The notes: generated by a model from the sequence alone, not told the origin. 64,000 nucleotides of DNA from Novosphingobium sp. (GCA_041639635.1 JBEQBV010000001.1:2561-66560), one strand, 5' to 3'. Positions 8,593 to 44,080 are shown, counted from the first letter of the stretch. Made by a program: numbers and translations.

Positions 8593-9606
8593 ATGACGAT
8601 GGCACCGCCCTTTTCCTGGCTGAAACCCGACCCCTTTGGCCTCCATGTCGTCCCCGCCGATGCGTGGATCGATCCGGCGCGGGCGGTGGATACGGCGCTC
8701 GTCACCCACGGCCACGCCGATCACGCGCGCGGTGGCCACGGCCTGACCATTGCCACGCCCGAAACGCTGGCGATCATGGCGCTGCGCTATGGCGTACTCG
8801 AAACTAGCTCTACGCCAGTGGCCTATGGTGAAACCGTAACGCTCAAAGGCGGCGTCAAGGCGACGTACGTCCCCGCAGGCCATGTCCTTGGCTCGGCCCA
8901 GATCCTGCTCGAACACGCAGGCGAGCGGGTGATCGTGACCGGCGACTACAAGCGCCGCGCCGATCCCACCTGCCCGCCATTTCAAGTCACTCCTTGCGAC
9001 GTGTTCGTGACCGAGGCGACTTTTGGCCTCCCCGTCTTCCGCCATCCGCCGATTGCCGATGAAATGGCCAAGCTCCTCGCCGCGCGCGAGAATGGGCAGG
9101 GCCGCTGCGTCCTGGTCGGCGCATACGCCTTGGGCAAGGCCCAGCGCGTCATCGCGGAACTGCGCGCTGCCGGATTTCGCGAAACCATCTGGCTCCACGG
9201 CGCGATGGAGCGGATGTGCCGCCTCTACGAAGACCACGGCGTCGATCTGGGCGATTTGCAACCCGTGGCAGGCGTACCCAAGGCGGCGCTGGCCAATGCG
9301 ATCATCATCTGCCCGCCTTCTGCGCTCAACGACCGCTGGAGCCGCCGCCTGCCCGAGCCGGTCACCGCCATGGCGTCAGGCTGGATGCGCGTGCGCCAGC
9401 GCGCCCGCCAGCGCGGGGTGGAACTGCCACTGATCATCTCAGACCATGCTGACTGGGACGAGCTGACCCAGACCATCACCCAAGTGAACCCCGCCGAAAC
9501 ATGGGTCACCCATGGCCGCGAGGAAGCCCTGCTGCGCTGGTGCGAACTCACCCAGCGCAAGGCCCGCGCGCTGGCGCTGGTAGGGTATGAGGACGAGGAT
9601 GATTGA
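8593..9606 (+). CDS. ligase-associated DNA damage response exonuclease (MBL/beta-CASP fold)
   Basis: It carries the HGHADHARGGH metallo-beta-lactamase motif. It lies immediately upstream of an ATP-dependent DNA ligase, the conserved pairing for this family. Confidence 0.8.
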   Translation: MTMAPPFSWLKPDPFGLHVVPADAWIDPARAVDTALVTHGHADHARGGHGLTIATPETLAIMALRYGVLETSSTPVAYGETVTLKGGVKATYVPAGHVLGSAQILLEHAGERVIVTGDYKRRADPTCPPFQVTPCDVFVTEATFGLPVFRHPPIADEMAKLLAARENGQGRCVLVGAYALGKAQRVIAELRAAGFRETIWLHGAMERMCRLYEDHGVDLGDLQPVAGVPKAALANAIIICPPSALNDRWSRRLPEPVTAMASGWMRVRQRARQRGVELPLIISDHADWDELTQTITQVNPAETWVTHGREEALLRWCELTQRKARALALVGYEDEDD

Positions 9607-9623
9607 TGCGTAGCGCTGGGGGC

Positions 9624-9693
9624 CTTCGACAAGCTCAGGCCGAGCGGATCCTATTGCTATCTCAGAAAACCGCTCATGCTGAGCTTGTCGAAG
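9624..9693. repeat. 70-bp palindromic REP-like element, family 1 (second copy)
   Basis: The arms are cttcgacaagctcaggccgagcgg … ccgctcatgctgagcttgtcgaag. They are the same 24-nt arms as at 4532-4601 but in the opposite relative order. Confidence 0.7.
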
Positions 9694-9718
9694 CATGTTT
9701 GCGCAATGGCACCAACCA

Positions 9719-11314
9719 ATGAACCGTTTCGCCGCCCTGCTCGACGCGCTCGTCCTCACGCCTTCGCGCAATGCCAAGCTGGCACTGCTGGCCGATTACC
9801 TGCGCGAAACGCCCGACCCCGACCGGGGCTGGGCACTCGCCGCGCTCACTGACGGGCTGGACTTCCCCGCCGTAAAAGCCAGCCTGATCCGCAGCCTGAT
9901 GGCGGAGCGGGTCGATCCGGTGCTGTGGACCTTGAGCCGCGAATACGTGGGCGATACGGCGGAAACCGCCAGCCTGCTCTGGCCCGAACCGCTAGGTCAG
10001 CGCCTTCCCGCCCCAACCGTCGCCGAAGTCGTCGCCACGCTCCACGCCACCACCCGCACCACCGCACCCGCCATTCTGACCGACTTGCTTGATCGCCTTG
10101 ACGTCAACGGTCGCTATGCATTGCTGAAGCTTGCAACCGGGGCGATGCGCATCGGCATCTCCGCGCGCCTCGCCAAAGTCGCCTTTGCGCAAGCCTTCAC
10201 CGTCAGCGTTGAGGATGTGGAGGAATACTGGCACGGCCAGTCCCCCCCCTACACCCCGCTGTTCGATTGGGCGGCGAACGGCGCACCGCCGCCCCGCACC
10301 GATCTGCTGCCGCTGTTCCGCCCCTTCATGCTCGCGCACCCGCTCGAAGCTGAAACATTGGACCTGTCCGAATACGCTGCCGAGTGGAAATGGGACGGCA
10401 TCCGCGTGCAGATCGTCCATGTAGCAGGCGAAACCCGCGTCTATTCCCGCAGCGGTGACGATATCTCCGCCACGTTCCCCGAAGTGACCACCGCGCTCAC
10501 CACTCCCTGCGTGCTCGATGGCGAACTGCTGGTGCGCGGCGCACATCAGGGTGGCGAAACCGGCGGCGCGGCCAGCTTCAACGCGCTGCAGCAGCGCTTG
10601 GGCCGCAAGACCGTGTCCAAGGCGATGCTGGCCGAATCCCCCGCCTTCGTGCGCCTTTACGATCTGCTGATCGAGGACAAGGAAGACCTGCGCGAATGGG
10701 CGTGGGAGCAGCGCCGCGCCCGATTGGAAGCACTCGTGCCGCGTCTTGACGCCACCCGTTTCGACATTTCGCAGGTCATCCCGGCCAAGAACTTCGACGA
10801 TCTGGCCGAAATTCGCAGCCGCGCACGCGATGAGGCCATAGAAGGCGTCATGCTCAAACGCCGCGATTCCCCCTATGTCGCGGGACGCCGCACCGGCTTG
10901 TGGTACAAGTGGAAACGCGATCCGCTCCTGATCGATTGCGTGCTGATGTATGCGCAGCGCGGGTCAGGCAAACGCTCGTCGTTCTATTCCGATTTCACCT
11001 TCGGCTGCTGGAACGGCGATCCCGATGCGGGGGCAGAACTGCTGCCTGTCGGCAAAGCCTATTTCGGCTTCACCGACGAGGAGCTGAAGTTCCTCGACCG
11101 CCACGTTCGCCAGCACACAGTCGGCAAATTCGGCCCGGTGCGCGAAACCGACAAGTCGCTGGTCTTCGAAGTCGCATTTGATTCGGTCCACACCAGCAAG
11201 CGCCACAAATCCGGCGTCGCGATGCGCTTCCCCCGCATCAGCCGCATCCGCACCGACAAGCCCGCGCACGAGGCGGACCGGCTCGATACGCTGAAGGCGC
11301 TGATTGCCGATTGA
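9719..11314 (+). CDS. ATP-dependent DNA ligase (ligase-associated damage response type)
   Basis: Adenylation motif I EWKWDGIRVQ, plus an OB-fold C-terminal region. The start is taken at MNRFAALLDAL; ATG 9695 abuts the right-hand end of the REP element. Confidence 0.9.
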   Translation: MNRFAALLDALVLTPSRNAKLALLADYLRETPDPDRGWALAALTDGLDFPAVKASLIRSLMAERVDPVLWTLSREYVGDTAETASLLWPEPLGQRLPAPTVAEVVATLHATTRTTAPAILTDLLDRLDVNGRYALLKLATGAMRIGISARLAKVAFAQAFTVSVEDVEEYWHGQSPPYTPLFDWAANGAPPPRTDLLPLFRPFMLAHPLEAETLDLSEYAAEWKWDGIRVQIVHVAGETRVYSRSGDDISATFPEVTTALTTPCVLDGELLVRGAHQGGETGGAASFNALQQRLGRKTVSKAMLAESPAFVRLYDLLIEDKEDLREWAWEQRRARLEALVPRLDATRFDISQVIPAKNFDDLAEIRSRARDEAIEGVMLKRRDSPYVAGRRTGLWYKWKRDPLLIDCVLMYAQRGSGKRSSFYSDFTFGCWNGDPDAGAELLPVGKAYFGFTDEELKFLDRHVRQHTVGKFGPVRETDKSLVFEVAFDSVHTSKRHKSGVAMRFPRISRIRTDKPAHEADRLDTLKALIAD

Positions 11315-33592: not shown

Positions 33593-34414
33593 ATGACCCC
33601 TCGCCTTGATAGCAGCCTTGCCTGGAAGACCGCCACGCGCCTTGTCGCCGCAAACCGCGATGTGCTGATCGCGATTGCCGGGGTGTTTTTCCTGTTCCCC
33701 AGCCTTGCCTTTTCGGTCTTTGTGCCCGAACCGCATATGGCACCGGGCACCCCTCCGCGCGAAATGATGGAAATCATTGCCGATGCCTGGACTGAATCCC
33801 TGCCGCTGCTGATCATTGTCACACTGCTGCAGATGGCAGGCACGGTTTCAATGCTGATCGTGATGACCGACCGGCAATTGCCGACGGTTGGCCAGGCTAT
33901 CCGGCGCGGCTTCGTGGCGCTCGGCCCTTATGTTCTGGCCCAGGTCATCGTCGGAGCCGTGCTGGGCACAGGGTTTCTGGTGCTGGTCAGCGCAGCTGCG
34001 TTGACCGGGCAACAAGCCATTGCCGCCATCGCCATCATCGGCGCGTTCATCGCCATGATCTGGTGCAGCGTGCGTCTGGCGCTGGTCGCGCCGGTGCTGG
34101 CAATCGAGACAGAACGCAATCCCGTGCAGGCGCTGAAACGGTCTTGGGCATTGACCAGCGGCAATTCGGGACGGCTCCTGACCTTCTTCGTGCTGGCCGG
34201 GCTGCTCTTTGCCGTGATCTATGGTCTGGCGATGATGCTGATCGGCGTGGTGCTCGTGCTAACCACCGGCGGCACGGTGCAACAGGTGCTGACAGCTGCG
34301 GTTTCCAGCTCGCTCACGGCAGGAGCGCTGGTCTATTTCGTGGCGATGCTGGCGGCAGTCTATCGCCAGCTTGCCGGCGATGGCGTGGACGAAGTTATCG
34401 ATATCTTCGGTTGA
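33593..34414 (+). CDS. hypothetical multi-pass membrane protein
   Basis: Six or more hydrophobic segments. I am not confident of a family. Confidence 0.6.
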   Translation: MTPRLDSSLAWKTATRLVAANRDVLIAIAGVFFLFPSLAFSVFVPEPHMAPGTPPREMMEIIADAWTESLPLLIIVTLLQMAGTVSMLIVMTDRQLPTVGQAIRRGFVALGPYVLAQVIVGAVLGTGFLVLVSAAALTGQQAIAAIAIIGAFIAMIWCSVRLALVAPVLAIETERNPVQALKRSWALTSGNSGRLLTFFVLAGLLFAVIYGLAMMLIGVVLVLTTGGTVQQVLTAAVSSSLTAGALVYFVAMLAAVYRQLAGDGVDEVIDIFG

Positions 34415-34438: not shown

Positions 34439-35065
34439 TTATTCTTTCCAGCCCCAGCTAATCACGCAAGGCGGCACGTTGACAGGTTCGAAGCCCTTGT
34501 CGATGCGGCGGAAGAACTGGCCCATCAGATCGCGTGCCCGCGCCGTGTACTGATAGACGAGGAACGCACCGCCCGGACGCAGCACGTTGTGCGTGGCTCC
34601 CATGATTGCCGGACCTACCCCTTCGGGCAGGTTCGAGAACGGCAGGCCCGAAAGCACGTAATCGGCATGTTCAAAGCCATTGGCGCGCACGATTTCCTGC
34701 ACATCGGTGGCGGAACCGTGGACCGCGATGAAGCGGCTGTCGCCAATGGTTTTCTGCAGATAATCGATGAAATCGGGATTGGTATCGATCACGATCAGCC
34801 GCCCATCACGGCGCAGCTTGTCCAGCACCGGACGGCAGAATGTGCCTACGCCGGGGCCATATTCGACAAACAGACGGCAATCTTCCCAATCCACTACCGA
34901 CAAAACCCGCTCGATCGTGCGATTTGACGACGGAACAATGGCCCCCACCATGCCAGGATGCTTGAGGAAGCCCTTGAAGAAGATACCGGCAGGGCCAAGC
35001 AAGCGTTCTGCCTTGCGTTTTGCCCGTTGAATCAAGGGCTCACGCGCAACTTGGGTTGAAGTCAT
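34439..35065 (-). CDS. class I SAM-dependent methyltransferase, Rhodobacter-type phospholipid N-methyltransferase (PmtA)-like
   Basis: …FLKHPGMVGAIVPSSNRTIERVL…VEYGPGVGTFCRPVL… (SAM motif I). Its size (208 aa) and layout fit the COG3963 family as I remember it. Confidence 0.65.
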   Translation of the reverse strand: MTSTQVAREPLIQRAKRKAERLLGPAGIFFKGFLKHPGMVGAIVPSSNRTIERVLSVVDWEDCRLFVEYGPGVGTFCRPVLDKLRRDGRLIVIDTNPDFIDYLQKTIGDSRFIAVHGSATDVQEIVRANGFEHADYVLSGLPFSNLPEGVGPAIMGATHNVLRPGGAFLVYQYTARARDLMGQFFRRIDKGFEPVNVPPCVISWGWKE

Positions 35066-35196: not shown

Positions 35197-36489
35197 ATGA
35201 CCGAAGGCGCGATTCGGCTGCCAAGAGAACGCATGGCGCTGCTGTTTGCGGTGATGCTGGTAACGGCAGCCGGCAATACCGCGATGCAATCGGTCATGCC
35301 ATCAATCGGCACGCGGCTTGGCATTGCCGACGTATGGGTGAGCCTTGCCTATTCGTGGTCTGCCTTGCTGTGGGTTCTGCTGGCACCATTCTGGGCGCGT
35401 CGGTCTGATCGCCGGGGACGCAAGGCGATGATGGCGCTCGGCGTGATCGGGTTCATCCTGTCCTTCACGCTGTGCGGGGCCATTCTGCATTTCGGCCTCA
35501 ATGGCTGGATGAGCGGCGTTTTGACGATGAGCCTGTTTGCACTGGCGCGTTCGTTCTACGGCCTGCTCGGCTCCGCTGCGCCGCCTGCAGTGCAGGCCTA
35601 CGTCGCCAGCCGGACGGGCCGTTCGGAACGGACGAAGGCGCTGGCGCTGGTCGCATCGAGCTTCGGCCTTGGCACCGTGCTTGGCCCTGCGCTGGCTCCA
35701 TTGATGATCCTGCCCGGCATCGGGCTGGTCGGCCCGTTTGCCGTGTTCGGCCTCATGGGCGTGATCGTGCTGATACTGTTGCGCACGCGCCTGCCCAACG
35801 ACGATCCGCGCTTTGCCGGCAAAGGCGAGGTGATGGCCGATCCATATGGCGGATCGTCCAGTGCGCAAATTCTGGCCGATGATGCACCGGACCAAGCCGA
35901 CGAGGCACCGCGGTTGCGGCTTTCCGACAAGCGATTGCGCCCATGGTTGTTGGCCGGACTGATCGGCGGACATGCGCAGGCGATGGTGCTGGGCGTGATC
36001 GGGTTCCTGCTGCTTGACCGGTTGGGACTGCGCGGCGATCCCGATGCGGGAGCTGGCCCCGTTGGTCTGGTGCTGATGGCAGGGGCGGTGGCCACCTTGC
36101 TGGCGCAATGGGGCCTGATCCCGATGCTGGCAATGGGGCCGCGCACGTCCACGCTCTGGGGCATGGGCCTTGCCGCCTTTGGCGTGCTGCCGATTGCGGC
36201 AGGCAGCGATCTGCACACCATCGCGGTGGGCTTTGCGGTCGCCTCGCTCGGCTTCGGGATGTTCCGCCCGGGCTTTACTTCCGGTGCCAGTCTGGCCGTG
36301 AGCAGGGGAGAACAGGGACAGGCAGCAGGCGTGGTCACTTCGATCAACGGCGCGGCCTACATTGCCGCCCCTGCCATCGGCGTCTGGCTCTATGGCCACT
36401 CCCCATGGCTGGTGTGGGGCGTGATCGAGGCGCTGGCGCTTACCGTGGTGGTGCTGTGCGTCTTCGCGGTGCGCAGGGATTTGGCCTAA
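35197..36489 (+). CDS. MFS transporter
   Basis: Twelve hydrophobic segments and MFS motif A (WARRSDRRGRKAMM). Confidence 0.85.
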   Translation: MTEGAIRLPRERMALLFAVMLVTAAGNTAMQSVMPSIGTRLGIADVWVSLAYSWSALLWVLLAPFWARRSDRRGRKAMMALGVIGFILSFTLCGAILHFGLNGWMSGVLTMSLFALARSFYGLLGSAAPPAVQAYVASRTGRSERTKALALVASSFGLGTVLGPALAPLMILPGIGLVGPFAVFGLMGVIVLILLRTRLPNDDPRFAGKGEVMADPYGGSSSAQILADDAPDQADEAPRLRLSDKRLRPWLLAGLIGGHAQAMVLGVIGFLLLDRLGLRGDPDAGAGPVGLVLMAGAVATLLAQWGLIPMLAMGPRTSTLWGMGLAAFGVLPIAAGSDLHTIAVGFAVASLGFGMFRPGFTSGASLAVSRGEQGQAAGVVTSINGAAYIAAPAIGVWLYGHSPWLVWGVIEALALTVVVLCVFAVRRDLA

Positions 36490-36492
36490 GCG

Positions 36493-37461
36493 TCAACTGA
36501 ACGCCGGCGAACCCGGAGGAGGTGGGCCATCCAGCCGCGAGGCCGTGGCCATGGCCGCGCGGTTGTGCAGCTGGACCGAGATGATCAGCAGCACGTTCAG
36601 CACCACGGCCTGATAGAAGAAGTACCAAACCGGGCTGCCCGCCAGCATCGCGAGGCCAAGCACGATGGCGCGTGGATTGGGGCCGAGAAACTTGAGAAAA
36701 TCAAGCAACGGCTTCTGTTCACGCGCCACTTCGGCACGAATCGCGGCCAACCGGGCATCGTCCTTTGATGCCATCGCCGCGCCCACGGCAGCATCGATCT
36801 GCCGGGCGTGAGGCGTCATCCCGGCGGCAAGGCGCAAATAGGCGCGCGCAATCGGTTCAAACAGCCGTGCAAATAGCCCGCCCGATCCGAACAAGCCCGC
36901 ACCATTGTCCTTCGCGTTGTTCAGCCAAGGCACGCCATAGGTCCAGTACTGGTAGAAGCGGCGCTGCACTTCGACATGGTTTGACTGGACGATGTGGCTC
37001 GCCCCTGCCGCCAGAGTCCAGGCCCATGCTGCGCCTGCGCCGATCTGCCGCGTCAGCACGAATGCCAGCAGCACATAGACCACGATGTGGCTGACATAAT
37101 CGCAAATGCCGTCCACCATTTCGCCAATCGGGCTGGTCTTCCCGGTAATCCGCGCCAGATCGCCATCGGCCCCGTCAACCACGTGCCAGCTCATGTGCAG
37201 GACGAGGCCCAGCAACGCCCCCCACGGCCAGCCCAGCGCCCATGTGCCGCCGGTTGAATCCATGTTGAAATACACAATGCCTGCCGCCACCACGAGCATG
37301 CCGCCAAAGACCGAAACCATGTTCGGCGTCAGCGGCGTATGTGCCAGCGCCCGCGCCAGACGCCATGCCAGCGGATGGTAAAGGTGATAGTTCAGGCCAT
37401 CCTGCAGTTCACGCGGGCGTTTTGGACGTTCGATTGTCCCGACCCGTTTTGCCACGTTCAC
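36493..37461 (-). CDS. CDP-alcohol phosphatidyltransferase family membrane protein (A)
   Basis: The signature D-x2-D-G-x2-A-R-x8-G-x3-D-x3-D is complete: VVDGADGDLARITGKTSPIGEMVDGICDY. GTG 37461 has GAGGGA about 10 nt upstream. The longer tracked ORF (to 38139) overlaps gene B and is Arg/Cys-rich junk. Confidence 0.85.
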   Translation of the reverse strand: MNVAKRVGTIERPKRPRELQDGLNYHLYHPLAWRLARALAHTPLTPNMVSVFGGMLVVAAGIVYFNMDSTGGTWALGWPWGALLGLVLHMSWHVVDGADGDLARITGKTSPIGEMVDGICDYVSHIVVYVLLAFVLTRQIGAGAAWAWTLAAGASHIVQSNHVEVQRRFYQYWTYGVPWLNNAKDNGAGLFGSGGLFARLFEPIARAYLRLAAGMTPHARQIDAAVGAAMASKDDARLAAIRAEVAREQKPLLDFLKFLGPNPRAIVLGLAMLAGSPVWYFFYQAVVLNVLLIISVQLHNRAAMATASRLDGPPPPGSPAFS

Positions 37462-37545
37462 CCTTGCAATCCCTCTTCTGGAAGCCGACTTGGCGCAACC
37501 GGTAGCCGGGTCTATAGGGTGTGGAAAGAGCCTGCGACGCACGGT

Positions 37546-38658
37546 ATGGGGCAAACGCATTTGAGCAATCCGTTTTTCGTCGCAATTCCAGCCAGTTCCT
37601 TTCTTCGTCGCCGCATCGGTGGCATTACCGGAATCGCACGCGGGATCATTCTGGCAGACCTTGTCGGCGCACAAGGCATCTTCATCATCGCAGATCGCCC
37701 GGTCGAGGAAGACTGGCGCAAGAGCTTTGCCCTGCGCGCGCGCGCCTTGCCAGCCGTCACCATCCTGCCACATGGCGCAGACCTCCCACCGGGGACAGCC
37801 CTCCTTCCGAAAGACGCGCTGCCCACCAAGGCCGCGCTGGAAGCCTTGGCCGCCACCCCTGAATTGGTGCTGACGCGCGGTGATCCGCGGCTCGTACGTA
37901 AAGATACAGAAGCAGCAACGGTGATGGCGTTGCTGCGCGCCACGCTTAAGCCGACCGAAGGACCGGTCGGCCGATGGATCAACCGCCCGGTTTCCTTCCG
38001 CATGTCGGCTCTTGCACTGAAACTGGGCATCGGCCCTGATCCGATCACATGGTTCACGCTGCTGCTGGCAGGCGTCATGGCTGTGGTCTTGGCTCAGGGC
38101 GGTTACGGTTGGCTCGCACTGGGCGGATTGCTGTTCCAAATTGTATCGATAACCGATTGCGTTGATGGCGATATCGCCCGCGTGTCATGGTCGATGAGCA
38201 GGCGCGGCGCACTGCTGGATACAGCCTGTGATATGGTGGCAAACCTTGGTTTCGTGATGGGCCTGATGATCGGCGTGGTGGACACCTATGGCTTTGGCTA
38301 CGTCTGGATCGGGCTCGCCTGCATCGTCCTGCTGATCAGCGGCATTGCGGCAATGAGCGTGCTGGTGCGCATGGGACCAAAGCGTGGCAGCTTCGATGTG
38401 CTGCGCGCTGCGCTCACCATCCGGCTTGAGGGCCGACCTGTATTGCAGAAGGTTACGCTAACGGTCGAAAGATTGTTCAAGCGCGATGTCTATGTCTTGC
38501 TTGCATGCTGTCTTTGCCTGTCCGGTCTCGCATGGTTGATCCCCGGAATGTTGCTTGGCGGTCTGTGTTTCTGGCTTGGCGCAGTGGCGTGGTGTGCGCC
38601 GCTGATTGTGGCGGACAGCGAAGGTTTGCTGCTGCCGCCCCACATGCGCCAGCTTTGA
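37546..38658 (+). CDS. CDP-alcohol phosphatidyltransferase family protein (B) with an N-terminal soluble extension of about 150 aa
   Basis: The signature is complete: ITDCVDGDIARVSWSMSRRGALLDTACDMV. The N-terminal region (…FFVAIPASSFLRRRIGGITGIARGIILADLVGAQGIFIIA…) resembles a degenerate nucleotidyltransferase fold. The start is ATG 37546, or GTG 37519. Confidence 0.8.
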   Translation: MGQTHLSNPFFVAIPASSFLRRRIGGITGIARGIILADLVGAQGIFIIADRPVEEDWRKSFALRARALPAVTILPHGADLPPGTALLPKDALPTKAALEALAATPELVLTRGDPRLVRKDTEAATVMALLRATLKPTEGPVGRWINRPVSFRMSALALKLGIGPDPITWFTLLLAGVMAVVLAQGGYGWLALGGLLFQIVSITDCVDGDIARVSWSMSRRGALLDTACDMVANLGFVMGLMIGVVDTYGFGYVWIGLACIVLLISGIAAMSVLVRMGPKRGSFDVLRAALTIRLEGRPVLQKVTLTVERLFKRDVYVLLACCLCLSGLAWLIPGMLLGGLCFWLGAVAWCAPLIVADSEGLLLPPHMRQL

Positions 38659-38788
38659 ACGAAATAGTCAGGCTGCGTTCAAGTACGGTGGCGAAAACAC
38701 TGGCAACCAACGGAGGCCCCTTGCACGATGCCGTTGGTTCCCCCAAATTGGCGCGCAACTGATCCGCAACCGGGAACCGAGAAAACGA

Positions 38789-39538
38789 ATGATTGGCGTT
38801 ATCCTGGCTGCGGGCCGCGGCAGCAGACTTGGCGTTGAGACCGACGCCCTGCCCAAGCCCCTGATCGGCGTTGCCGGAAGAACCTGTCTCGATTTTGCGA
38901 TCGATGCGCTACTGGCAGTGGTTGATCGGATTGTCGTGGTCACTGGCTATCGCGCAGAGCTTATCGAAAATCATATCGCCACTTACTGGCCAGATTCCCC
39001 GGTGCAAACCGTGCGCAACCCACAACTGGAAGCAGGCAATCTGACATCGCTAGGAGCTGCACGCCCGCTGATCGGTTCCGATCCGTTCATCCTGACGAAT
39101 GCGGACCACCTCTTTCCGATCGACATGTATACCCGCCACTTTCCTGTCGTGCCGGAGGGAATCGGCATTGCCTGCGAAAAGGAACGCCCGGTCCTGCCCG
39201 ATGAAATGAAGGTGATCGAACGCGCTGATCGCCTCGTCGCCATTTCAAAGACCCTCCCGAAATACGACGGCGCCTATATCGGCACCACTTGCGTTACGCA
39301 GAGCGCAACCCGTGATTATTGGGATGCCTTTGATCAGGTGAACGCCCACAGCGATCTGGCAATCGCTTCGGTCGAAATGGTCCTCGATGAGCTCGCCCGA
39401 AATGGCGCACAAGGTGACCAGAATGTCGTTTCGACTCAGGTATCCTGCCCAAAGATCTGCTGGTTGTCAGGGCTCGTGTGGTTCGAAGTCGATACGCCCG
39501 AAGACCTTGCCGTAGCACGCGAAAGCCTCGCTGCATGA
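38789..39538 (+). CDS. NTP transferase domain protein (sugar/alcohol-phosphate cytidylyl- or uridylyltransferase-like) (C)
   Basis: MIGVILAAGRGSRLG…LPKPLIGVAGR… (G-x-G-S-R-L loop), ending …WFEVDTPEDLAVARE. Confidence 0.85.
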   Translation: MIGVILAAGRGSRLGVETDALPKPLIGVAGRTCLDFAIDALLAVVDRIVVVTGYRAELIENHIATYWPDSPVQTVRNPQLEAGNLTSLGAARPLIGSDPFILTNADHLFPIDMYTRHFPVVPEGIGIACEKERPVLPDEMKVIERADRLVAISKTLPKYDGAYIGTTCVTQSATRDYWDAFDQVNAHSDLAIASVEMVLDELARNGAQGDQNVVSTQVSCPKICWLSGLVWFEVDTPEDLAVARESLAA

Positions 39539-40242
39539 TCGACCACAGCGCGTCGTTTCGCGCAGGGAAAGAAGCCGAAGCAGAAATCAAGGTTCTGGTG
39601 TTCGATCTGGATGGAACGCTTGTTCCAACCATGGAAGACTATGCCGACAAGGCGGCAGAACTCATGGCTCAAGCCTTCGGAACGCCCCTTGCCGATGCCC
39701 GGCGTGCCTACTTTGCCACCTCGGGCCTGCCGTTCGAAAGGCAATTAAGGCAACTCTATCCGGGTGAGCAGACAGATCCCGTGGCAGAGCGGTTTGAAGC
39801 GTGGAAGGACGGCTACCTTTCGGGAATTACGCTGTCGGCCGCCAATGCGAAGCTTCTTGCAGAATGGCGTTCGCACGGCTTTCTGATCGCAATTTCGTCA
39901 AACAATCTCGAAGTTTACGTCGATCGCCTTGCGAAGGACTGGCCGGTCGACTGCGCGCTTGGCTATCGGCCCGCTGGTCGCGATGACCCCGGCTTTGCCA
40001 AAGGCGAGGCGCATTTTCTGGCGCTGGAAAAGCGGTTTGGCATGGCGCGCAGGCATTTCCTGTTCACCGGAGATTCACCGAACGACGCGCACATCGCGGC
40101 CGCGGCCGGGGTGCGGTTCTGCGCATTGTTGACCGAAGCGTTCACGCAGGACGATTTCGAGAAAGCTGTGCCAGGCACCAAAACCTTGTCAGTCCTTGCA
40201 GAACTTGGTGATGTTTTTGCCACGGTTTCAGCAAACGGATGA
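39535..40242 (+). CDS. HAD-IA family phosphatase (D)
   Basis: HAD motif I VFDLDGTLV, motif II ISSNN and motif IV GDSPNDAHIAAAAG. Its ATG overlaps the stop of gene C (ATGA). Confidence 0.85.
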   Translation: MIDHSASFRAGKEAEAEIKVLVFDLDGTLVPTMEDYADKAAELMAQAFGTPLADARRAYFATSGLPFERQLRQLYPGEQTDPVAERFEAWKDGYLSGITLSAANAKLLAEWRSHGFLIAISSNNLEVYVDRLAKDWPVDCALGYRPAGRDDPGFAKGEAHFLALEKRFGMARRHFLFTGDSPNDAHIAAAAGVRFCALLTEAFTQDDFEKAVPGTKTLSVLAELGDVFATVSANG

Positions 40243-40415
40243 CGCCATGCGGTAGACCCTGCGGAAACGCACTATCGCAAGGGGCATTTTTCGGTTAAGG
40301 GCCGCGTCCCATCGGAAGATGCTGTCTTCTGCGCGCCTGGTCATTGGTGCAGCGCAGAAAGCAGATTGCGGATGAGGGCGCAGGATGCAGGACGTGGCCG
40401 ATAAGCCAGTTCCTT

Positions 40416-40441
40416 GATTCCTCGTGACCAACTGAGGAATC
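40416..40441. promoter_or_regulatory. perfect 8-bp inverted repeat gattcctc-N10-gaggaatc upstream of ino1
   Basis: Read directly from the sequence. Each arm contains a GANTC site, and a third GANTC lies at 40472-40476. The function is unknown. Confidence 0.2.
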
Positions 40442-40525
40442 GGCTTGCATTCGGTAGCATTTCGGTATTTTGAGTCAGTTTGATTACAGCCGCTTTAAAG
40501 CGCCTGTGTGAAGGGATCGTTATTC

Positions 40526-41626
40526 ATGAAGCCAATCAAGGTCGCCGTGATCGGCGTGGGCAACTGCGCTAGCTCGCTGGTGCAGGGTGTTGCCTATTAC
40601 CGCAACAACAACTCGTCGCAGGGCCTCATCCACGACCGTATTGGCGGATATGGCGCCGGTGACGTCGATTTCGTGCTCGGCGTCGATGTCGATGCGCGCA
40701 AGGTTGGCAAGGATATTGCCGAAGCCATCTTCGCTGCTCCGAACAATACCACCGTGTTCCAGTCGAACGTGCCGCAGACCGGCGCAAAGGTCATCATGGG
40801 CCGCGTGTCCGATGGCGTTGCCGCGCACATGACCTCGGTCGGCGAAAAGGGCTTCATCGTGGCTGATCAGCCCGAAGCCACTCAGGCTGATATCGTCAAG
40901 GCACTCAAGGATTCGGGCGCAGAAGTGCTGCTCAACTTCCTCCCCGTCGGGTCGCAGGAAGCCACTGAATTCTACATGGAATGCGCGCTTGAAGCCGGCG
41001 TTGCCGTCGTCAACTGCATGCCGGTGTTCATCGCTTCAACGCCGGAATGGGAAGCCAAGTTCCGCGAAAAGCGCATCCCGATCGTGGGCGACGATATCAA
41101 GGCGCAGGTCGGTGCAACCATCGTCCACCGCGTGCTCTCCAGCCTGTTCGCCGCCCGCGGCGTAAACGTGGAGCGTACCTACCAGCTCAACACCGGTGGC
41201 AACACCGACTTCATGAACATGCTCGATCGTCAGCGTCTGGGCAGCAAGAAGGAATCGAAGACCGAAGCCGTGCAGGCCATGCTCGCCACGCGACTTGAGG
41301 ACGAGAACATCCACGTCGGTCCTTCGGACTATGTTCCATGGCAGAAGGACAACAAGCTGTGCTTCATCCGCATGGAAGGCCAGCAGTGGGGCAACGTTCC
41401 GATGAACCTGGAACTGCGCCTTTCGGTGGAAGACAGCCCGAACTCGGCCGCTTGCGTGATGGATGCGATCCGTTGCTGCAAGGTTGCGCTGGATCGTGGT
41501 GAAGGCGGCGCGCTGATCGGCCCGTCGGCCTACTTCTGCAAGCACCCGCCGCAGCAGTTCAATGATGATGTTGCTGCGCAGATGGTGGAAGAATACGCCT
41601 CGGTTGAAAAGCTGGCCGCCGAATAA
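40526..41626 (+). CDS. ino1: myo-inositol-1-phosphate (inositol-3-phosphate) synthase
   Basis: MKPIKVAVIGVGNCASSLVQGVAYY… Rossmann N-terminus and …YQLNTGGNTDFMNMLDRQRLGSKKESKT… catalytic region. At 366 aa it matches the bacterial/archaeal short MIPS type. AAGGGA lies 9 nt upstream of the ATG. Confidence 0.92.
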   Translation: MKPIKVAVIGVGNCASSLVQGVAYYRNNNSSQGLIHDRIGGYGAGDVDFVLGVDVDARKVGKDIAEAIFAAPNNTTVFQSNVPQTGAKVIMGRVSDGVAAHMTSVGEKGFIVADQPEATQADIVKALKDSGAEVLLNFLPVGSQEATEFYMECALEAGVAVVNCMPVFIASTPEWEAKFREKRIPIVGDDIKAQVGATIVHRVLSSLFAARGVNVERTYQLNTGGNTDFMNMLDRQRLGSKKESKTEAVQAMLATRLEDENIHVGPSDYVPWQKDNKLCFIRMEGQQWGNVPMNLELRLSVEDSPNSAACVMDAIRCCKVALDRGEGGALIGPSAYFCKHPPQQFNDDVAAQMVEEYASVEKLAAE

Positions 41627-41654
41627 GCGATCACTTCTCCGCTAGAGTGGAATG

Positions 41655-41690
41655 GGCCGGCCGGACGCAAGTCTGGCCGGCCTTTTCGTT
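41655..41690 (+). terminator. strong intrinsic terminator after ino1
   Basis: 11-bp GC stem ggccggccgga/tctggccggcc followed by ttttcgtt. The string ggccttttcgtt is repeated 18 nt downstream. Confidence 0.8.
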
Positions 41691-41827
41691 AGGGGTGGCC
41701 TTTTCGTTGGAGCAATGTCTAGCGAGGGCACACGTCCCGCAGCCTGCCCTGCCTCCAATGGTTAACGTTTCACCGTTCCATCGGGCACTCTTTTCATTTC
41801 GGTCCGAAACCTCTAACCGAAGCGGTC

Positions 41828-42589
41828 ATGGATGCCCTGATCATCGCCGCCGGTTTCGGCAGTCGCCTTGCCGACCTGTCGCCGTCCAAACCGCTGACCC
41901 CGGTTGCGGGCGTGCCGTTGATCGAAATCGGCGTTCGTCAGGCCATGCTCGCAGGTGTGACCCGCGTGGTCGTGGTAACCGGCCATCATGCAGACATGCT
42001 CGAAGCTTTCCTCGCAGACCTTTCGCTGCGGGCTGGGGTTGAAATCGTGCCCGTGCGGTTGAGCAACTGGTCCACGCCCAATGGATATTCGGTTATGGCC
42101 GGGGCCACGCGATGCGATGGCAACTATTTGCTGATGATGGCCGATCACATGTTCGATGCCGATATTCTGGCCCGTCTCATGCTGGAACACCGGCCGACGC
42201 GCGGCGTGACACTGGCGGTTGACCGCCGCGTCGATAATCCGCTGGTCGATCCCGATGATGCCACATGGGTGCGGATGGATGATGAAGGCCGCATTACCGC
42301 CATCGGCAAGACCATCACGCCATATGATGCGGTCGATTGCGGTGCATTCCTCGCCACGCCCGAACTGGCGCTCGCCATTCGTGATGCCATTGCCGAAGGC
42401 AAGCCGGGCAGCCTGTCTGATGGGATGCAGCGCCTTGCCGATGCAGGCCGGGCCGCCACGATGGACATCGAAGATGCATGGTGGATGGACGTGGACGATC
42501 CGCGCGCCCACGCCCTTGCCGAAGAACTGGCACCCTGGCACCTCGCCAGAACCTTTGCCGAAATCGGCGTCCCGGCAGAGGGGCTTTAG
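41828..42589 (+). CDS. NTP transferase domain protein (second cytidylyltransferase-like gene) (F)
   Basis: MDALIIAAGFGSRLADLSPSKPLTPVAGVPLI… and …WWMDVDDPRAHALAEE. Confidence 0.85.
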   Translation: MDALIIAAGFGSRLADLSPSKPLTPVAGVPLIEIGVRQAMLAGVTRVVVVTGHHADMLEAFLADLSLRAGVEIVPVRLSNWSTPNGYSVMAGATRCDGNYLLMMADHMFDADILARLMLEHRPTRGVTLAVDRRVDNPLVDPDDATWVRMDDEGRITAIGKTITPYDAVDCGAFLATPELALAIRDAIAEGKPGSLSDGMQRLADAGRAATMDIEDAWWMDVDDPRAHALAEELAPWHLARTFAEIGVPAEGL

Positions 42590-42592
42590 TAC

Positions 42593-43099
42593 TCAGGGAT
42601 ACTTGAGGTGAACGCGGGTCGACAGACCCGTCTTCGAGATATTCAGCCGCACCGACCGGAACGAGGGAATGCTCGCGATTGTCGGCGGGTTGTTCGAAAA
42701 GCCGAAACCTTCTTCGGGCAGACCGAGCACACCGCTGCGCTTCAGGTTCGTGCTCGCGTCTTCGTCATGATAGACGGCCAGAGCATAGACTCCCGGCTTT
42801 GGCACAAACAGGCACATGCGCGTTTCGGGTGCTGTTGCATCGACCCGCCCGACATACAGCGAGCCCTTCTTGGCAAGGAACTTGCGCGGCTCGTCGGCAT
42901 AAAGCGTCACTGCCATCAGGCCATTGCCATTGCGCACGCCGTCAACCGTCACATTGATCCACGTGTCGCTCTTGGGTCCGGCGCAGTTTGGCGTGTTGGC
43001 CGCAGCTTCGGTTGCGCCAACTGTCAGCGCCGAAGCAGCAGCAGCAAAGATCAGCGCCGTAGCATGCCAATGCAATGGCCAGCGGTTCGGCTTCTTCAT
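42593..43099 (-). CDS. secreted DUF2141 domain protein
   Basis: Signal peptide MKKPNRWPLHWHATALIFAAAASALTVGA, then …GNGLMAVTLYADEPRKF…YALAVYHDEDASTNLKRSGVLGLPEEGFGFSNN…. Confidence 0.7.
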   Translation of the reverse strand: MKKPNRWPLHWHATALIFAAAASALTVGATEAAANTPNCAGPKSDTWINVTVDGVRNGNGLMAVTLYADEPRKFLAKKGSLYVGRVDATAPETRMCLFVPKPGVYALAVYHDEDASTNLKRSGVLGLPEEGFGFSNNPPTIASIPSFRSVRLNISKTGLSTRVHLKYP

Positions 43100-43302
43100 A
43101 TTCAAATTGCCCCGATCTCGATGTGTCTTTTCAGCCGGTTGACCATGAACCTGGTTCATTACATCTGTGTTCCGACCGTTTGCGTCTGCGCCATACCGGC
43201 ATATTTCTGACCCGTTAAGTAAGATTCAGGCCGTGAACCACCCCTGAACCCTGCTGCAAGCCTCCGTTCAATCAGAAAGCAAGTCCAAACCGGGACATTC
43301 CG

Positions 43303-43311
43303 TGTGGATAA
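43303..43311 (+). promoter_or_regulatory. perfect DnaA-box consensus TGTGGATAA in the DUF2141/rpe intergenic region
   Basis: 9/9 match read directly from the sequence. It is an isolated site, so function is not implied. Confidence 0.25.
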
Positions 43312-43420
43312 TCCGCCGAACGCCGCTTGTTCACCCGATTCGCCAAAGCTAAGCGCAAGAGGGTGGGGTAATTGCAAAGCGTTCATGGGTCTGCCGCCCC
43401 CTGCAGGATATTGCCGCCAG

Positions 43421-44080
43421 ATGACTCCGCTGATCTCGCCATCCATCCTTTCCGCAGATTTCGCTCGTCTGGGCGAAGAAGTGCGCGCAATTGATGCCGC
43501 AGGCGCTGACTGGATCCACGTGGATGTGATGGACGGCCACTTCGTGCCGAACATCACGATCGGCCCGATGGTGGTAAAGGCGCTGCGCCCGCACACGGCC
43601 AAACCTTTTGACGTGCACCTGATGATCTCGCCAGTGGATGCCTATCTGCAGGCATTCGCCGATGCCGGGGCCGATATCATCACCGTCCACCCCGAAGCGG
43701 GACCGCACATTCACCGCACAGTGCAAGCGATCAAGGCGCTGGGCAAGAAGGCCGGTGTCTCGCTCAATCCCGGCACGCCTGCCAAGATGCTCGATTACCT
43801 GATCGATGATGTCGATCTTGTCCTGATCATGAGCGTGAACCCCGGCTTTGGCGGGCAAAGCTTCATATCCAACCAGCTGCGCAAGATCGAAGCGGTGCGC
43901 AAGATGATCGACAAGTCGGGCCGCCCCATCCACCTTGAGGTTGATGGCGGCGTGGATACCACCACAATCCGCTCCTGCGTTGATGCCGGGGCAGACGTGC
44001 TGGTGGCCGGGACCGCAACGTTCAAAGGCGGCCCTTCGCATTATGCAGCGAATATCGCTGCGCTGAAGGCACTGGGCTGA
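43421..44080 (+). CDS. rpe: ribulose-phosphate 3-epimerase
   Basis: [21 protein letters not shown]…[15 protein letters not shown]…. Confidence 0.93.

Follow-up and report, generated by a model that had tools for sequence, protein, structure and literature searches.

We describe a cluster of six adjacent genes, A to F, in a 64,000-nucleotide stretch of Novosphingobium sp. DNA (the window) and propose, with about even confidence, that it encodes a pathway of Kennedy type, through CDP-inositol, to a membrane lipid with an inositol-phosphate head group. The most likely products would be inositol phosphoceramide and/or phosphatidylinositol. The cluster is composite: A, E and F form a constant core, while B, a frequent add-on, and C-D, a mobile pair, are separable additions. 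Should the proposal be true, the cluster may explain the inositol sphingolipids of a related species. An inositol-phosphoceramide-like sphingolipid was detected in Novosphingobium acidiphilum with no candidate genes, and no Bacteroides cluster homologue was found in this species at the authors' BLAST threshold (Heaver et al. 2022, PMC9246714). In the literature we found no description of the A-F cluster in sphingomonads and, as a first, sequence-only reading had supposed, no characterised equivalent in this lineage.

Composition and conservation of the cluster

All six open reading frames announced by the sequence-only reading are present at positions 36493-42589, the quoted motifs were found in the translations, and the Pfam check returned a matching family for each (Table 1). 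The nearest proteins come from Novosphingobium, in agreement with the sphingomonad-like genome that had been assumed.

Table 1. Features of the A-F cluster and its flanks, in window coordinates
Feature	Position	Strand	Description
MFS transporter	35197-36489	+	Pfam MFS_1 1.4e-35
A	36493-37455	-	320 aa; GTG start; Pfam CDP-OH_P_transf 3.5e-10
A-B divergent intergenic region	37456-37545		90 bp
B	37546-38658	+	370 aa; Pfam CDP-OH_P_transf 2.1e-9
C	38789-39538	+	249 aa; Pfam NTP_transf_3
D	39535-40242	+	Pfam HAD families
E	40526-41626	+	366 aa; Pfam Inos-1-P_synth 3e-36
Terminator-like hairpin 3' of E	41654-41690	+	13-bp stem, then TTTCGTT
F	41828-42589	+	253 aa; Pfam NTP_transf_3
DUF2141 protein	42593-43099	-	Pfam DUF2141 4.5e-23

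The A-F order is kept whole in seven loci (L001, L002, L003, L006, L082, L088 and L091), and an eighth (L083) contains A, B, C and D up to the contig end. Since the six-gene block recurs in other genomes, the arrangement is not due to chance. About 20 further Sphingomonadales loci carry reduced versions of the cluster, with D absent from the four-gene and three-gene versions. E and F stand side by side in about 20 Sphingomonadales loci, and F always accompanies E and A. In Novosphingobium huizhouense (L092) the locus consists of only the MFS gene and A, then E and F, which identifies A, E and F as the constant core. The block does not amount to a single indivisible pathway, as B and C-D can be separated from the core. 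A and B are divergent in nearly all loci that hold both, the exceptions being L022 and L026. The gap between them is presumably a shared promoter region; no sigma-70 consensus was found in it.

Formation and predicted activation of inositol phosphate

By homology, E is a myo-inositol-1-phosphate (inositol-3-phosphate) synthase (MIPS) of the short bacterial type, as first proposed: it aligns over its full length with M. tuberculosis Ino1 (PDB 1gr0; 2.2e-115) and reaches 425 bits against TIGR03450. This strong homology shows that it converts glucose-6-P to L-myo-inositol-1-P, the first step of the pathway. F contains the GFGSRL loop. Its top NCBIfam match is IPCT/DIPPS with 92.9 bits across the entire IPCT half, and its three best PDB matches are the solved IPCTs 2xme (8.9e-17), 4mnd and 4jd0, with which it aligns end to end. 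Compared with the IPCT domains of IPCT/DIPPS fusions, F keeps every IPCT-invariant residue. From this whole-length likeness and the retained residues we strongly infer that F is a stand-alone CTP:inositol-1-phosphate cytidylyltransferase (IPCT), which would form CDP-inositol from CTP and inositol-1-P in the second step. The prediction that inositol-1-P is activated in this form is therefore well supported. The terminator-like hairpin between E and F, in which 10 of the 13 stem pairs are G-C, suggests that F may be transcribed separately in the Novosphingobium sp. window genome.

C contains the GRGSRL loop, and a 100% identical protein is on record. As judged from its alignment, C is an IPCT paralogue, an NTP_transf_3 nucleotidyltransferase with an altered phospho-alcohol pocket. 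Eight conserved pocket positions of the C family differ from IPCT and F while the catalytic residues are kept: the family carries L, N, E, M, S, Y, T and E where F has G86, M104, D132, T146, G160, D170, F174 and D221, which are common to IPCT domains. These differences support the earlier idea of two activated alcohols, in which C probably activates a second, different phospho-alcohol and so likely makes a CDP-alcohol other than CDP-inositol. D is translationally coupled to C, and direct reading confirms the ATGA overlap noted before. It belongs to the HAD superfamily of hydrolases, has a C1 cap and retains all four catalytic motifs; identity to D homologues of distant bacteria is 55-63%, and the cap is invariant. 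In other bacteria the conserved C-D pair adjoins A-type transferases, and C-D is a separable two-gene module. D might remove the terminal phosphate from the transferase product, as the sequence-only reading supposed, or it might just as plausibly hydrolyse the pyrophosphate released by C.

The two CDP-alcohol phosphotransferases

The DGx2ARx8Gx3Dx3D signature is complete in A (D97..D119). An NCBI Novosphingobium protein, likewise of 320 aa, shares 98% identity with A. A has 1622 relatives, the A family counts 119 representatives at E<=1e-30, and A-type enzymes form their own clade in the tree. Six transmembrane (TM) helices are predicted; TM4 and TM5 are separated by about 80 aa of inserted helical sequence on the cytoplasmic side. 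The AF2 model (pLDDT 82.5) matches AF2299 at 3e-4 and CEPT1 at 6e-3 in Foldseek. Fusion partners of A-type enzymes include an IspD/TarI-like cytidylyltransferase (174 bits) and a PfkB sugar/polyol kinase; the locus of the PfkB fusion further encodes an MprF-type flippase domain and, at 105 bits, an IPCT-like transferase. These fusions and neighbours argue that the A family uses soluble CDP-polyol donors and not CDP-DAG. A conserved arginine of A, R262, aligns with a DIPPS arginine, and A-type genes travel together with a HAD phosphatase; both would fit a phosphorylated soluble acceptor. In the proposed pathway, A would deliver phospho-inositol to its acceptor on the cytoplasmic side of the inner membrane, and B would carry out a related transfer.

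B likewise has the complete signature (D207..D229). Its nucleotidyltransferase-like N-domain (about residues 10-130) is followed by a juxtamembrane helix and then by six TM helices. Its best sequence matches are AF2299 (1.8e-11) and IPCT/DIPPS (3.5e-10), and Foldseek places its AF2 model (pLDDT 88) closest to 4mnd (4.5e-7) and AF2299 (5e-7). The N-domain is degenerate: hhalign brings it into register with the F family (81.5%), but the glycine-rich loop is gone. We reject B as a DIPPS orthologue because two DIPPS-invariant arginines are missing, the one after the fourth Asp and the second one of the TM5 RDxR: 'LDR' and 'RDxR' of DIPPS become 'D[MAT]' and 'RD[FV][YF]' in the B type. The clade with these changes has members in Sphingomonadales, Myxococcota, Bacteroidota and Acidobacteriota, and B branches outside the clade of true IPCT/DIPPS fusions. 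B may descend from a fusion of IPCT/DIPPS type in which the cytidylyltransferase half decayed and hydrophobic or aromatic residues took the place of the arginines that bind inositol phosphate.

Neighbouring genes and the nature of the product

MFS orthologues adjoin A in L001, L004, L082, L083, L088, L091 and L092, a link by synteny only that makes the transporter a possible accessory for export or import. The DUF2141 protein, convergent with F, has a signal-peptide-like N-terminus, and its gene neighbours the cluster genes in at least 17 loci of sphingomonads, among them B-only loci of Sphingomonas. It is called as 168 aa in L082, and the open reading frame itself runs to 43159. Genes for MOP/Wzx-type flippases directly flank the cluster in L001, L088 and L091 and the B-only loci L010 and L013, and lie a few genes off in L012; in L029 and L095, B-like or A-type genes have an LPG_synthase_TM domain as their immediate neighbour. 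The window itself contains no flippase gene. The MFS transporter, the secreted DUF2141 protein and the Wzx-like flippase of sister genomes could plausibly take part in moving or handling the product within the envelope.

The likeliest acceptors would be membrane lipids, namely ceramide and/or diacylglycerol. Lipid-acceptor enzymes such as CEPT1 have extra helices. The six helices predicted for both A and B count against a lipid acceptor, as this architecture is associated with soluble acceptors (Clarke et al. 2015, PMC4634129); the association is no strict rule, since NCBIfam models a CDP-alcohol-type cardiolipin synthase of 180 positions. Formally, MIPS, IPCT, a DIPPS-like transferase and a phosphatase equal the gene set of the DIP solute pathway, which speaks against the lipid reading. 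The product could accordingly be a soluble phosphodiester, a DIP- or glycerophosphoinositol-like compatible solute, but we consider this unlikely. F would supply CDP-inositol and C another CDP-alcohol, for instance CDP-glycerol; A and/or B would condense them with inositol-1-P, D would remove the remaining phosphate, and the MFS protein would move the solute. Such a route would suit the six-TM architecture, the aligned arginine of A and the pairing of A-type genes with a HAD of small-molecule type and strongly conserved cap. The same query also recovered genuine E plus IPCT/DIPPS fusions (L068, L069, L074, L075, L077 and L080), and AF2299 and DIPPS, the closest solved relatives of B, process no lipids (PMC4634129). 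However, B has lost the two DIPPS-invariant arginines, and MOP- and MprF-TM-type flippases and secreted DUF2141 recur by A- and B-type genes, although a solute of the cytosol has no need of such proteins. DIP is known from (hyper)thermophiles, but the hosts here are mesophiles of fresh water and soil. The nearby flippases, MFS and secreted DUF2141 favour a membrane or envelope product over a DIP-type cytosolic solute.

A mycobacterial-type route is very improbable. Here A and/or B would be PIP-synthase-like and use CDP-diacylglycerol and inositol-1-P, D would be the PIP phosphatase, the product would be phosphatidylinositol, and the nucleotidyltransferases would serve another purpose. E would supply the inositol-1-P, a HAD phosphatase is present, and the top NCBIfam matches of A are archaetidylinositol-phosphate synthase (42.6 bits) and PIP synthase (32.7 bits), but no score comes anywhere near the 170-180 bits that the family cut-offs demand. 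The route leaves F, the constant companion of E and A, unexplained; D is missing from the smaller cluster versions, and the A-type fusions and neighbours speak for donors other than CDP-DAG. We give equally little credence to an envelope glycan or polyprenol-linked intermediate (exopolysaccharide, capsule or glycosphingolipid sugar) that is decorated with phospho-inositol or another phospho-alcohol and then flipped by a Wzx-type flippase. CDP-alcohol phosphotransferases are not known to act on glycans, and the sphingomonad clusters examined have no glycosyltransferase or polymerase genes in or adjoining them. Such a product would account for the Polysacc_synt (Wzx-like) flippases that abut the cluster in several genomes; a B-like gene of Polyangiales lies among glycosyltransferases, and inositol metabolism is tied to the Bacteroides capsule (Heaver et al. 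2022, PMC9246714).

Comparison with known systems

A shares the catalytic signature and the six-TM fold with bacterial and archaeal PIP and archaetidylinositol-phosphate synthases (M. tuberculosis PgsA1, R. salmoninarum PIPS, B. thetaiotaomicron BT_1523), from which its TM4-TM5 insertion and the fusions in its family set it apart. Archaeoglobus fulgidus AF2299 (PDB 4o6m, 4o6n, 4q7c) is the best sequence match of B and a top fold match of B and A, and combines an extramembrane N-domain with six TM helices as B does; identity is only 14-18% and its own physiological substrate is uncharacterised, so no function can be transferred. With the DIP pathway of (hyper)thermophiles (MIPS, IPCT, DIPPS and phosphatase; structures A. 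fulgidus IPCT-DIPPS 4mnd, IPCT 2xme and T. maritima IMPCT 4jd0) the cluster shares the MIPS E and the IPCT-like F. B resembles IPCT-DIPPS in overall fold, including the N-domain, and DIPPS in the juxtamembrane DG..SR..NR..S, the catalytic signature and the TM5 'RD' pair, and differs in the lost glycine-rich loop and arginines. In contrast to the DIP pathway, the sphingomonad cluster adds transferase family A, nucleotidyltransferase C and envelope-related neighbours, and its hosts are mesophilic sphingolipid producers.

An alphaproteobacterial precedent for a soluble IPCT-fold enzyme acting with a CDP-alcohol transferase is the ceramide (di)phosphoglycerate pathway of Caulobacter, in which CpgD, an IPCT-like CTP:phosphoglycerate cytidylyltransferase, and CpgA/CC_1159, with a CDP-alcohol-transferase domain, together make the head group of a sphingolipid, for which a phosphoesterase is needed as well (PMC12275187, PMC11324152). 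We set CpgD and CpgA beside C and A by description; the alcohol there is 2-phosphoglycerate, MIPS is not involved, and the genes lie inside the sphingolipid synthesis cluster. The closest described counterpart is the unconfirmed 'alternative' cluster of Bacteroides vulgatus and Prevotella, likened here by gene content. It has the same composition of MIPS, NTP transferase, CDP-alcohol phosphotransferase and HAD hydrolase, with one nucleotidyltransferase and one transferase compared to two of each in sphingomonads, and a lysyl-PG-synthase-like (flippase-domain) gene lies nearby, as in L029 and L095. For these inositol-phosphoceramide-making Bacteroidetes the same Kennedy-like logic, via CDP-inositol and without a PIP intermediate, has been proposed (Heaver et al. 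2022, PMC9246714).

Gene content and layout of the cluster

The six open reading frames that the sequence-only reading placed at 36493-42589 are present as described, and all sequence motifs quoted for them are found in the translations. Pfam profiles agree with the gene kinds it had named, with CDP-OH_P_transf in A and B, NTP_transf_3 in C and F, HAD families in D and Inos-1-P_synth in E. A spacer of 90 bp separates the divergent genes A and B, and a strong terminator-like hairpin lies 3' of E. For every protein of the cluster the closest relatives come from Novosphingobium, and GCA_002256985.1 (locus L082) carries a near-identical locus with the same synteny as the window. Neither the cluster (at E<=1) nor the window (at gathering score) has an Rfam match, no tRNA genes were found, and in the promoter scan the real sequence did not outscore shuffled sequence. 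G+C content is 0.58-0.60 over C to F and the adjoining DUF2141 gene (window 38001-44000), compared to 0.61-0.66 for most of the window, which fits horizontal acquisition of part of the cluster without proving it.

Genes and features of the cluster and its surroundings; positions refer to the window unless another locus is named
Feature	Position	Strand	Description
Membrane protein	33593-34414	+	273 aa, multi-pass
SAM-methyltransferase	34439-35065	-	208 aa, two genes upstream of A
A	36493-37455	-	CDP-alcohol phosphotransferase, 320 aa, GTG start; 98% identity to a 320-aa Novosphingobium protein
B	37546-38658	+	CDP-alcohol phosphotransferase, 370 aa; homologues 365-380 aa
C	38789-39538	+	NTP transferase, 249 aa; a database protein with 100% identity exists
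D	39535-40242	+	HAD protein; ATGA overlap with C read from sequence
E	40526-41626	+	MIPS, 366 aa
Hairpin	41654-41683		terminator-like
F	41828-42589	+	NTP transferase, 253 aa
DUF2141 protein	42593-43159	-	signal-peptide-like N-terminus
Flippase, L001	7459-8979		MOP/Wzx-type, 500 aa, between MFS and A
Flippase, L088	4135-5637		as in L001
Flippase, L091	8934-10436		as in L001

Predicted supply of CDP-inositol and of a second CDP-alcohol

By homology, E is a myo-inositol-1-phosphate synthase (MIPS/Ino1). It matches M. tuberculosis Ino1 (PDB 1gr0) at 2.2e-115 over its full length (residues 4-357) and PF01658 with 124 bits (cut-off 27). The score against the actinobacterial equivalog TIGR03450, 425 bits, stays under the cut-off of 638, as expected for a non-actinobacterial enzyme. 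F is predicted to be an orthologue of the CTP:inositol-1-P cytidylyltransferase (IPCT). Its top three PDB matches are the solved IPCTs 2xme (8.9e-17), 4mnd (5.7e-16) and 4jd0 (4.7e-13), each aligned end to end over residues 1-224/226. In NCBIfam, whose sole IPCT model is the Thermococcales fusion, F matches best to the IPCT half of that model with 92.9 bits, the fusion cut-off of 580 being beyond a stand-alone domain. We aligned 17 IPCT domains, taken from fusions or IPCT-adjacent loci, with 26 F-type and 34 C-type proteins and considered columns that are at least 80% conserved. The F family keeps the strongly conserved IPCT columns apart from a few less conserved ones, such as A39 (Leu in IPCT) and Y100 (Phe). 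Retained in F are G86, M104, D106-H107, D132, T146, G160-K161, D170, G172, F174, W219 and D221.

The C family differs from IPCT and F at 8 positions (F numbering: G86L, M104N, D132E, T146M, G160S, D170Y, F174T and D221E). The IPCT-invariant pocket residues are not retained, while the nucleotide-binding and catalytic residues are. Because the pocket is altered at these 8 positions and the catalytic residues are kept, C is probably an active nucleotidyltransferase for another phospho-alcohol. Its best PDB match is a MurU-like enzyme and not an IPCT. That the fold can activate other substrates is documented by CpgD of Caulobacter, an IPCT-fold enzyme whose product is CDP-glycerate (PMC12275187).

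D contains all of the HAD motifs I-IV (D24/D26/T28, S121-S122, K156 and G179-D180...D184), which are invariant in 7 homologues, and its scores for Pfam Hydrolase, HAD and HAD_2 all exceed the cut-offs. Homologues in distant hosts share 55-63% identity with a strongly conserved cap. This conservation of the cap across distant hosts implies that D would act on one specific small substrate. For a HAD pyrophosphatase of the BT2127 type, the PDB search returned generic HAD phosphatases only, and we keep this function as an alternative role.

Two transferase families

A represents its own family, with 1622 relatives found by word search and 119 representatives at E<=1e-30 in the exhaustive search. 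The AF2 model (pLDDT 82.5) has a CDP-alcohol transferase core with an insertion of ~80 aa between TM4 and TM5, and its fold matches are weak. Scores against the equivalogs for archaetidylinositol-phosphate and PIP synthase are 42.6 and 32.7 bits, where 180 and 170 are required. An IspD/TarI-like cytidylyltransferase (174 bits) is the fusion partner of one A-type protein, and a PfkB sugar/polyol kinase that of another, in whose locus genes for an IPCT-like transferase (105 bits) and for an MprF-type flippase domain are also found. The family fusions to cytidylyltransferase and polyol kinase argue indirectly that A-type enzymes would use soluble CDP-polyol donors, counter to a CDP-DAG-dependent PIP-synthase role for A. 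The Foldseek matches to CEPT1/CHPT1 were discarded as evidence for a lipid acceptor, with TM-scores of 0.27-0.33 and rmsd >20 A.

A 'Cytophagaceae' MAG contig (L056) carries a sphingomonad-type A (246 bits) together with a B gene of that type, and two A fragments of 76-87 aa (P0283, P0285) on contigs of 230-263 bp are filed under Acinetobacter baumannii and Vibrio parahaemolyticus. These assignments are probably binning or contamination artefacts.

B is related to the synthase of the di-myo-inositol-phosphate (DIP) pathway, DIPPS, and to AF2299, in sequence (AF2299 1.8e-11, IPCT/DIPPS 3.5e-10) as well as in fold (IPCT-DIPPS 4.5e-7, AF2299 5e-7). In a confident AF2 model (pLDDT 88), B has six TM helices, a juxtamembrane helix and an N-domain of alpha/beta type. 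With hhalign the N-domain aligns in register to F-family sequences (81.5%; residues 22-51 of B versus 24-53 of F). Its glycine-rich loop is absent, and we read it as a decayed cytidylyltransferase domain. The CDP-alcohol signature is complete, and the juxtamembrane DG..SR..NR..S motif of DIPPS is present as E138-G139, R143, N146-R147 and S150. Compared with 16 DIPPS domains, B keeps this motif and the 'RD' pair of TM5 and lacks two arginines, the DIPPS-invariant Arg after the fourth Asp ('LDR'; D229-M230 in B) and the second Arg of 'RDxR' (R313-D314-V-Y316). Across the wider sphingomonad B clade the first of these sites holds A, T or M and the second F or Y. In PIP synthases, the site of RDxR is occupied by the acceptor-specificity motif RxxR of TM5, which includes an Arg that holds the phosphate of inositol phosphate, and this RxxR aligns with an acceptor-specificity determinant of CEPT1 (PMC4634129). 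Since the phosphate-binding arginines are replaced, we infer that the acceptor of B would be not inositol-1-P but a less anionic molecule. The score of B against NCBIfam IPCT/DIPPS is 59.7 bits, with a cut-off of 580. In a rough neighbour-joining tree without support values, B lies outside the true IPCT/DIPPS fusion clade, in a clade that also holds Myxococcota, Bacteroidota, Acidobacteriota and Verrucomicrobiota. A B-like gene of Polyangiales (L081) was set aside, as glycosyltransferases and a nucleotidyltransferase-aminotransferase fusion in its locus suggest another kind of system. In L082, the public B call (8768-10891) has 707 aa and crosses the opposite-strand A gene, whereas the call in L083 has 375 aa; the longer call probably stems from a start site annotated too far upstream.

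Modular conservation of the cluster

A profile of B run on one genome per species gave at least 80 loci, and the six-frame ORFs of those 80 loci were searched with the six window proteins. The full order A/B-C-D-E-F occurs in L001 (Novosphingobium sp. ERN07), L002, L003 (N. anseongense), L006, L082, L088 and L091, and L083 has A, B, C and D before its contig runs out. N. percolationis (L004) has A/B-E-F with C-D missing. This four-gene version is widespread, in Novosphingobium, Erythrobacter, Porphyrobacter, Croceibacterium, Qipengyuania, Sphingosinicella and one Sphingomonas; its A, E and F are well conserved and its B scores just 65-100 bits against B of the window. N. huizhouense (L092) has MFS-A/E-F alone, and inspection of the 445-bp gap between A and E revealed no B remnant. 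As a pair whose genes always overlap by 4-8 bp or are separated by a short gap, C-D is found beside an A-type transferase on non-Novosphingobium metagenome or MAG contigs, and these transferases have 30-33% identity to A and the same architecture. Two such contigs (L084, L087) carry MIPS and an F-like gene a few kb off; for three others (L086, L089, L090) there is no MIPS or F-like gene within 7-8 kb. From the arrangements across these loci, including N. huizhouense and the C-D contigs, A, E and F form the constant sphingomonad core, and B and C-D are separable additions, C-D being a widely distributed, mobile nucleotidyltransferase-HAD pair. The conserved synteny rules out a chance juxtaposition of the six genes.

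Three Sphingomonas MAG loci (L010, L012, L013) combine a flippase gene with a B-like transferase; L012 and L013 also carry DUF2141, and none of the three has MIPS or IPCT within 10 kb. Their B-like proteins reach 110-116 bits against B of the window, more than B of the four-gene clusters, and the donor alcohol in these loci may differ.

Neighbouring genes

In Novosphingobium an MFS transporter gene adjoins A. The DUF2141 gene adjoins F in the window, and at least 17 sphingomonad loci (L008, L012, L013, L014, L023 and L027 among them) have DUF2141 in an adjacent position. DUF2141 genes stand beside A-/B-type transferases even in Sphingomonas loci without MIPS and IPCT. In Sphingomonadales, paralogues are reported next to crtG, which encodes a carotenoid hydroxylase (PMC5989583), and it is conceivable that DUF2141 handles hydrophobic envelope molecules. 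The flippase gene that the closest six-gene relatives L001, L088 and L091 carry between MFS and A has no counterpart in the window. There (36489-36493), as in the 98%-identical relatives L082 and L083, just 3 bp lie between the MFS stop and the A stop; the flippase gene is a lineage-specific loss or gain. In a Chitinophaga-like locus an LPG_synthase_TM gene and a nucleotidyltransferase gene come after the B-like gene, an arrangement that echoes the lysyl-PG-synthase-like gene beside both Bacteroides inositol clusters (PMC9246714). Taken together, the flippase, MFS, DUF2141 and LPG_synthase_TM neighbours point to handling of the cluster product in the membrane or envelope.

Further upstream, the SAM-methyltransferase scores 87 bits for the ornithine-lipid N-methyltransferase OlsG and 57 bits for PmtA, both under the cut-offs. 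In L082, L083, L088, L091 and L092 its gene keeps synteny with the cluster, and it may be a further membrane-lipid head-group gene near the cluster. The 273-aa membrane protein weakly matches PF10110, a membrane domain found in glycerophosphodiester phosphodiesterases, with 28 bits, just under the cut-off; in related genomes its gene is likewise syntenic with the cluster region.

Proposed pathway and its acceptor

By homology, E makes inositol-1-P, from which F would, as the conserved pocket strongly suggests, make CDP-inositol. A, and B where present, would move phospho-inositol from CDP-inositol to an acceptor, as constant co-location and the family fusions suggest. C, with its altered pocket, would supply a second CDP-alcohol, and D would dephosphorylate the transferase product or remove PPi. 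The acceptor would be a membrane lipid, ceramide and/or diacylglycerol, leading to inositol phosphoceramide and/or PI. In sphingomonads sphingolipids replace LPS in the outer membrane. These host sphingolipids, the flippase and DUF2141 context, the lost arginines of B and published lipid data for a congener are the basis for a lipid acceptor.

A competing explanation is a soluble, DIP-like solute. The gene set formally equals the DIP pathway, A keeps a conserved Arg aligned with an Arg of DIPPS, and A-type transferases pair with a HAD phosphatase. Both A and B have the six-TM architecture that Clarke et al. link to soluble acceptors (PMC4634129). Each of these points weakens the lipid route. 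The CDP-inositol head-group pathway proposed in the sequence-only reading is partly supported: MIPS as E and an IPCT-like F stand, B fails the DIPPS residue tests, and B and C-D turn out to be separable. Weighing both sides, we consider the odds of a lipid product to be even. The narrower statement that the cluster forms and uses CDP-inositol we rate much higher. More tentative, and on balance rather unlikely, is a Kennedy-type inositol phosphoceramide route of Sphingomonadales in its full form, with MIPS, a stand-alone IPCT, A-type and DIPPS-derived B-type CDP-inositol:ceramide/DAG transferases, and a C-D pair that would add a second phospho-alcohol to give a compound phospho-head group. We know of no bacterium in which such a route has been demonstrated.

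Relation to known systems

Inositol lipids are rare among bacteria. Myxobacteria make ceramide phosphoinositol, which we do not count as evidence here, and our literature search returned no paper using the term 'ceramide phosphoinositol'. The search likewise gave no paper on this sphingomonad cluster or on a bacterial CDP-inositol:lipid transferase. For N. acidiphilum, an inositol-phosphoceramide-like sphingolipid was found 'despite lacking homology' to either Bacteroides cluster (PMC9246714). Strain DSM 19966 of this species is not among the 120 A homologues listed, and it is absent from the members of ten clusters and, among the matches listed, from the at least 80 loci of the B-profile scan.

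If the lipid route is true, the cluster would supply the so far unassigned genes for the inositol-sphingolipid-like species of N. acidiphilum and would confirm the 'alternative' pathway hypothesised for gut Bacteroidetes. A phospho-inositol sphingolipid in the outer membrane could be relevant to the biology of the envelope and possibly to how hosts recognise sphingomonad lipids. The gene set is compact and directly testable in cultivable aerobic alphaproteobacteria, from the smallest version A+E+F of N. huizhouense to the full set of six genes plus flippase (N. subterraneum / ERN07 / THN1 type). In B, the decayed IPCT domain would be retained as a structural module.

We conclude that the cluster is a variant of a CDP-alcohol head-group pathway with transferases of two uncharacterised families and a mobile pair of nucleotidyltransferase and HAD genes. 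The nearest solved relatives are the enzymes of the DIP pathway and AF2299, from which B departs in two DIPPS-defining residue tests. CpgD and CpgA of Caulobacter offer an analogy of enzyme types within Alphaproteobacteria (PMC12275187, PMC11324152). The closest described system is the 'alternative' Bacteroidetes cluster of Heaver 2022 in B. vulgatus and Prevotella, whose CDP-inositol route is still unconfirmed (PMC9246714). As in that cluster, MIPS, NTP transferase, CDP-alcohol phosphotransferase and HAD genes are co-located, here within 6.1 kb, and the comparison with its genes BVU_RS13095, BVU_RS13105 and BVU_RS13115 is one of gene kinds.
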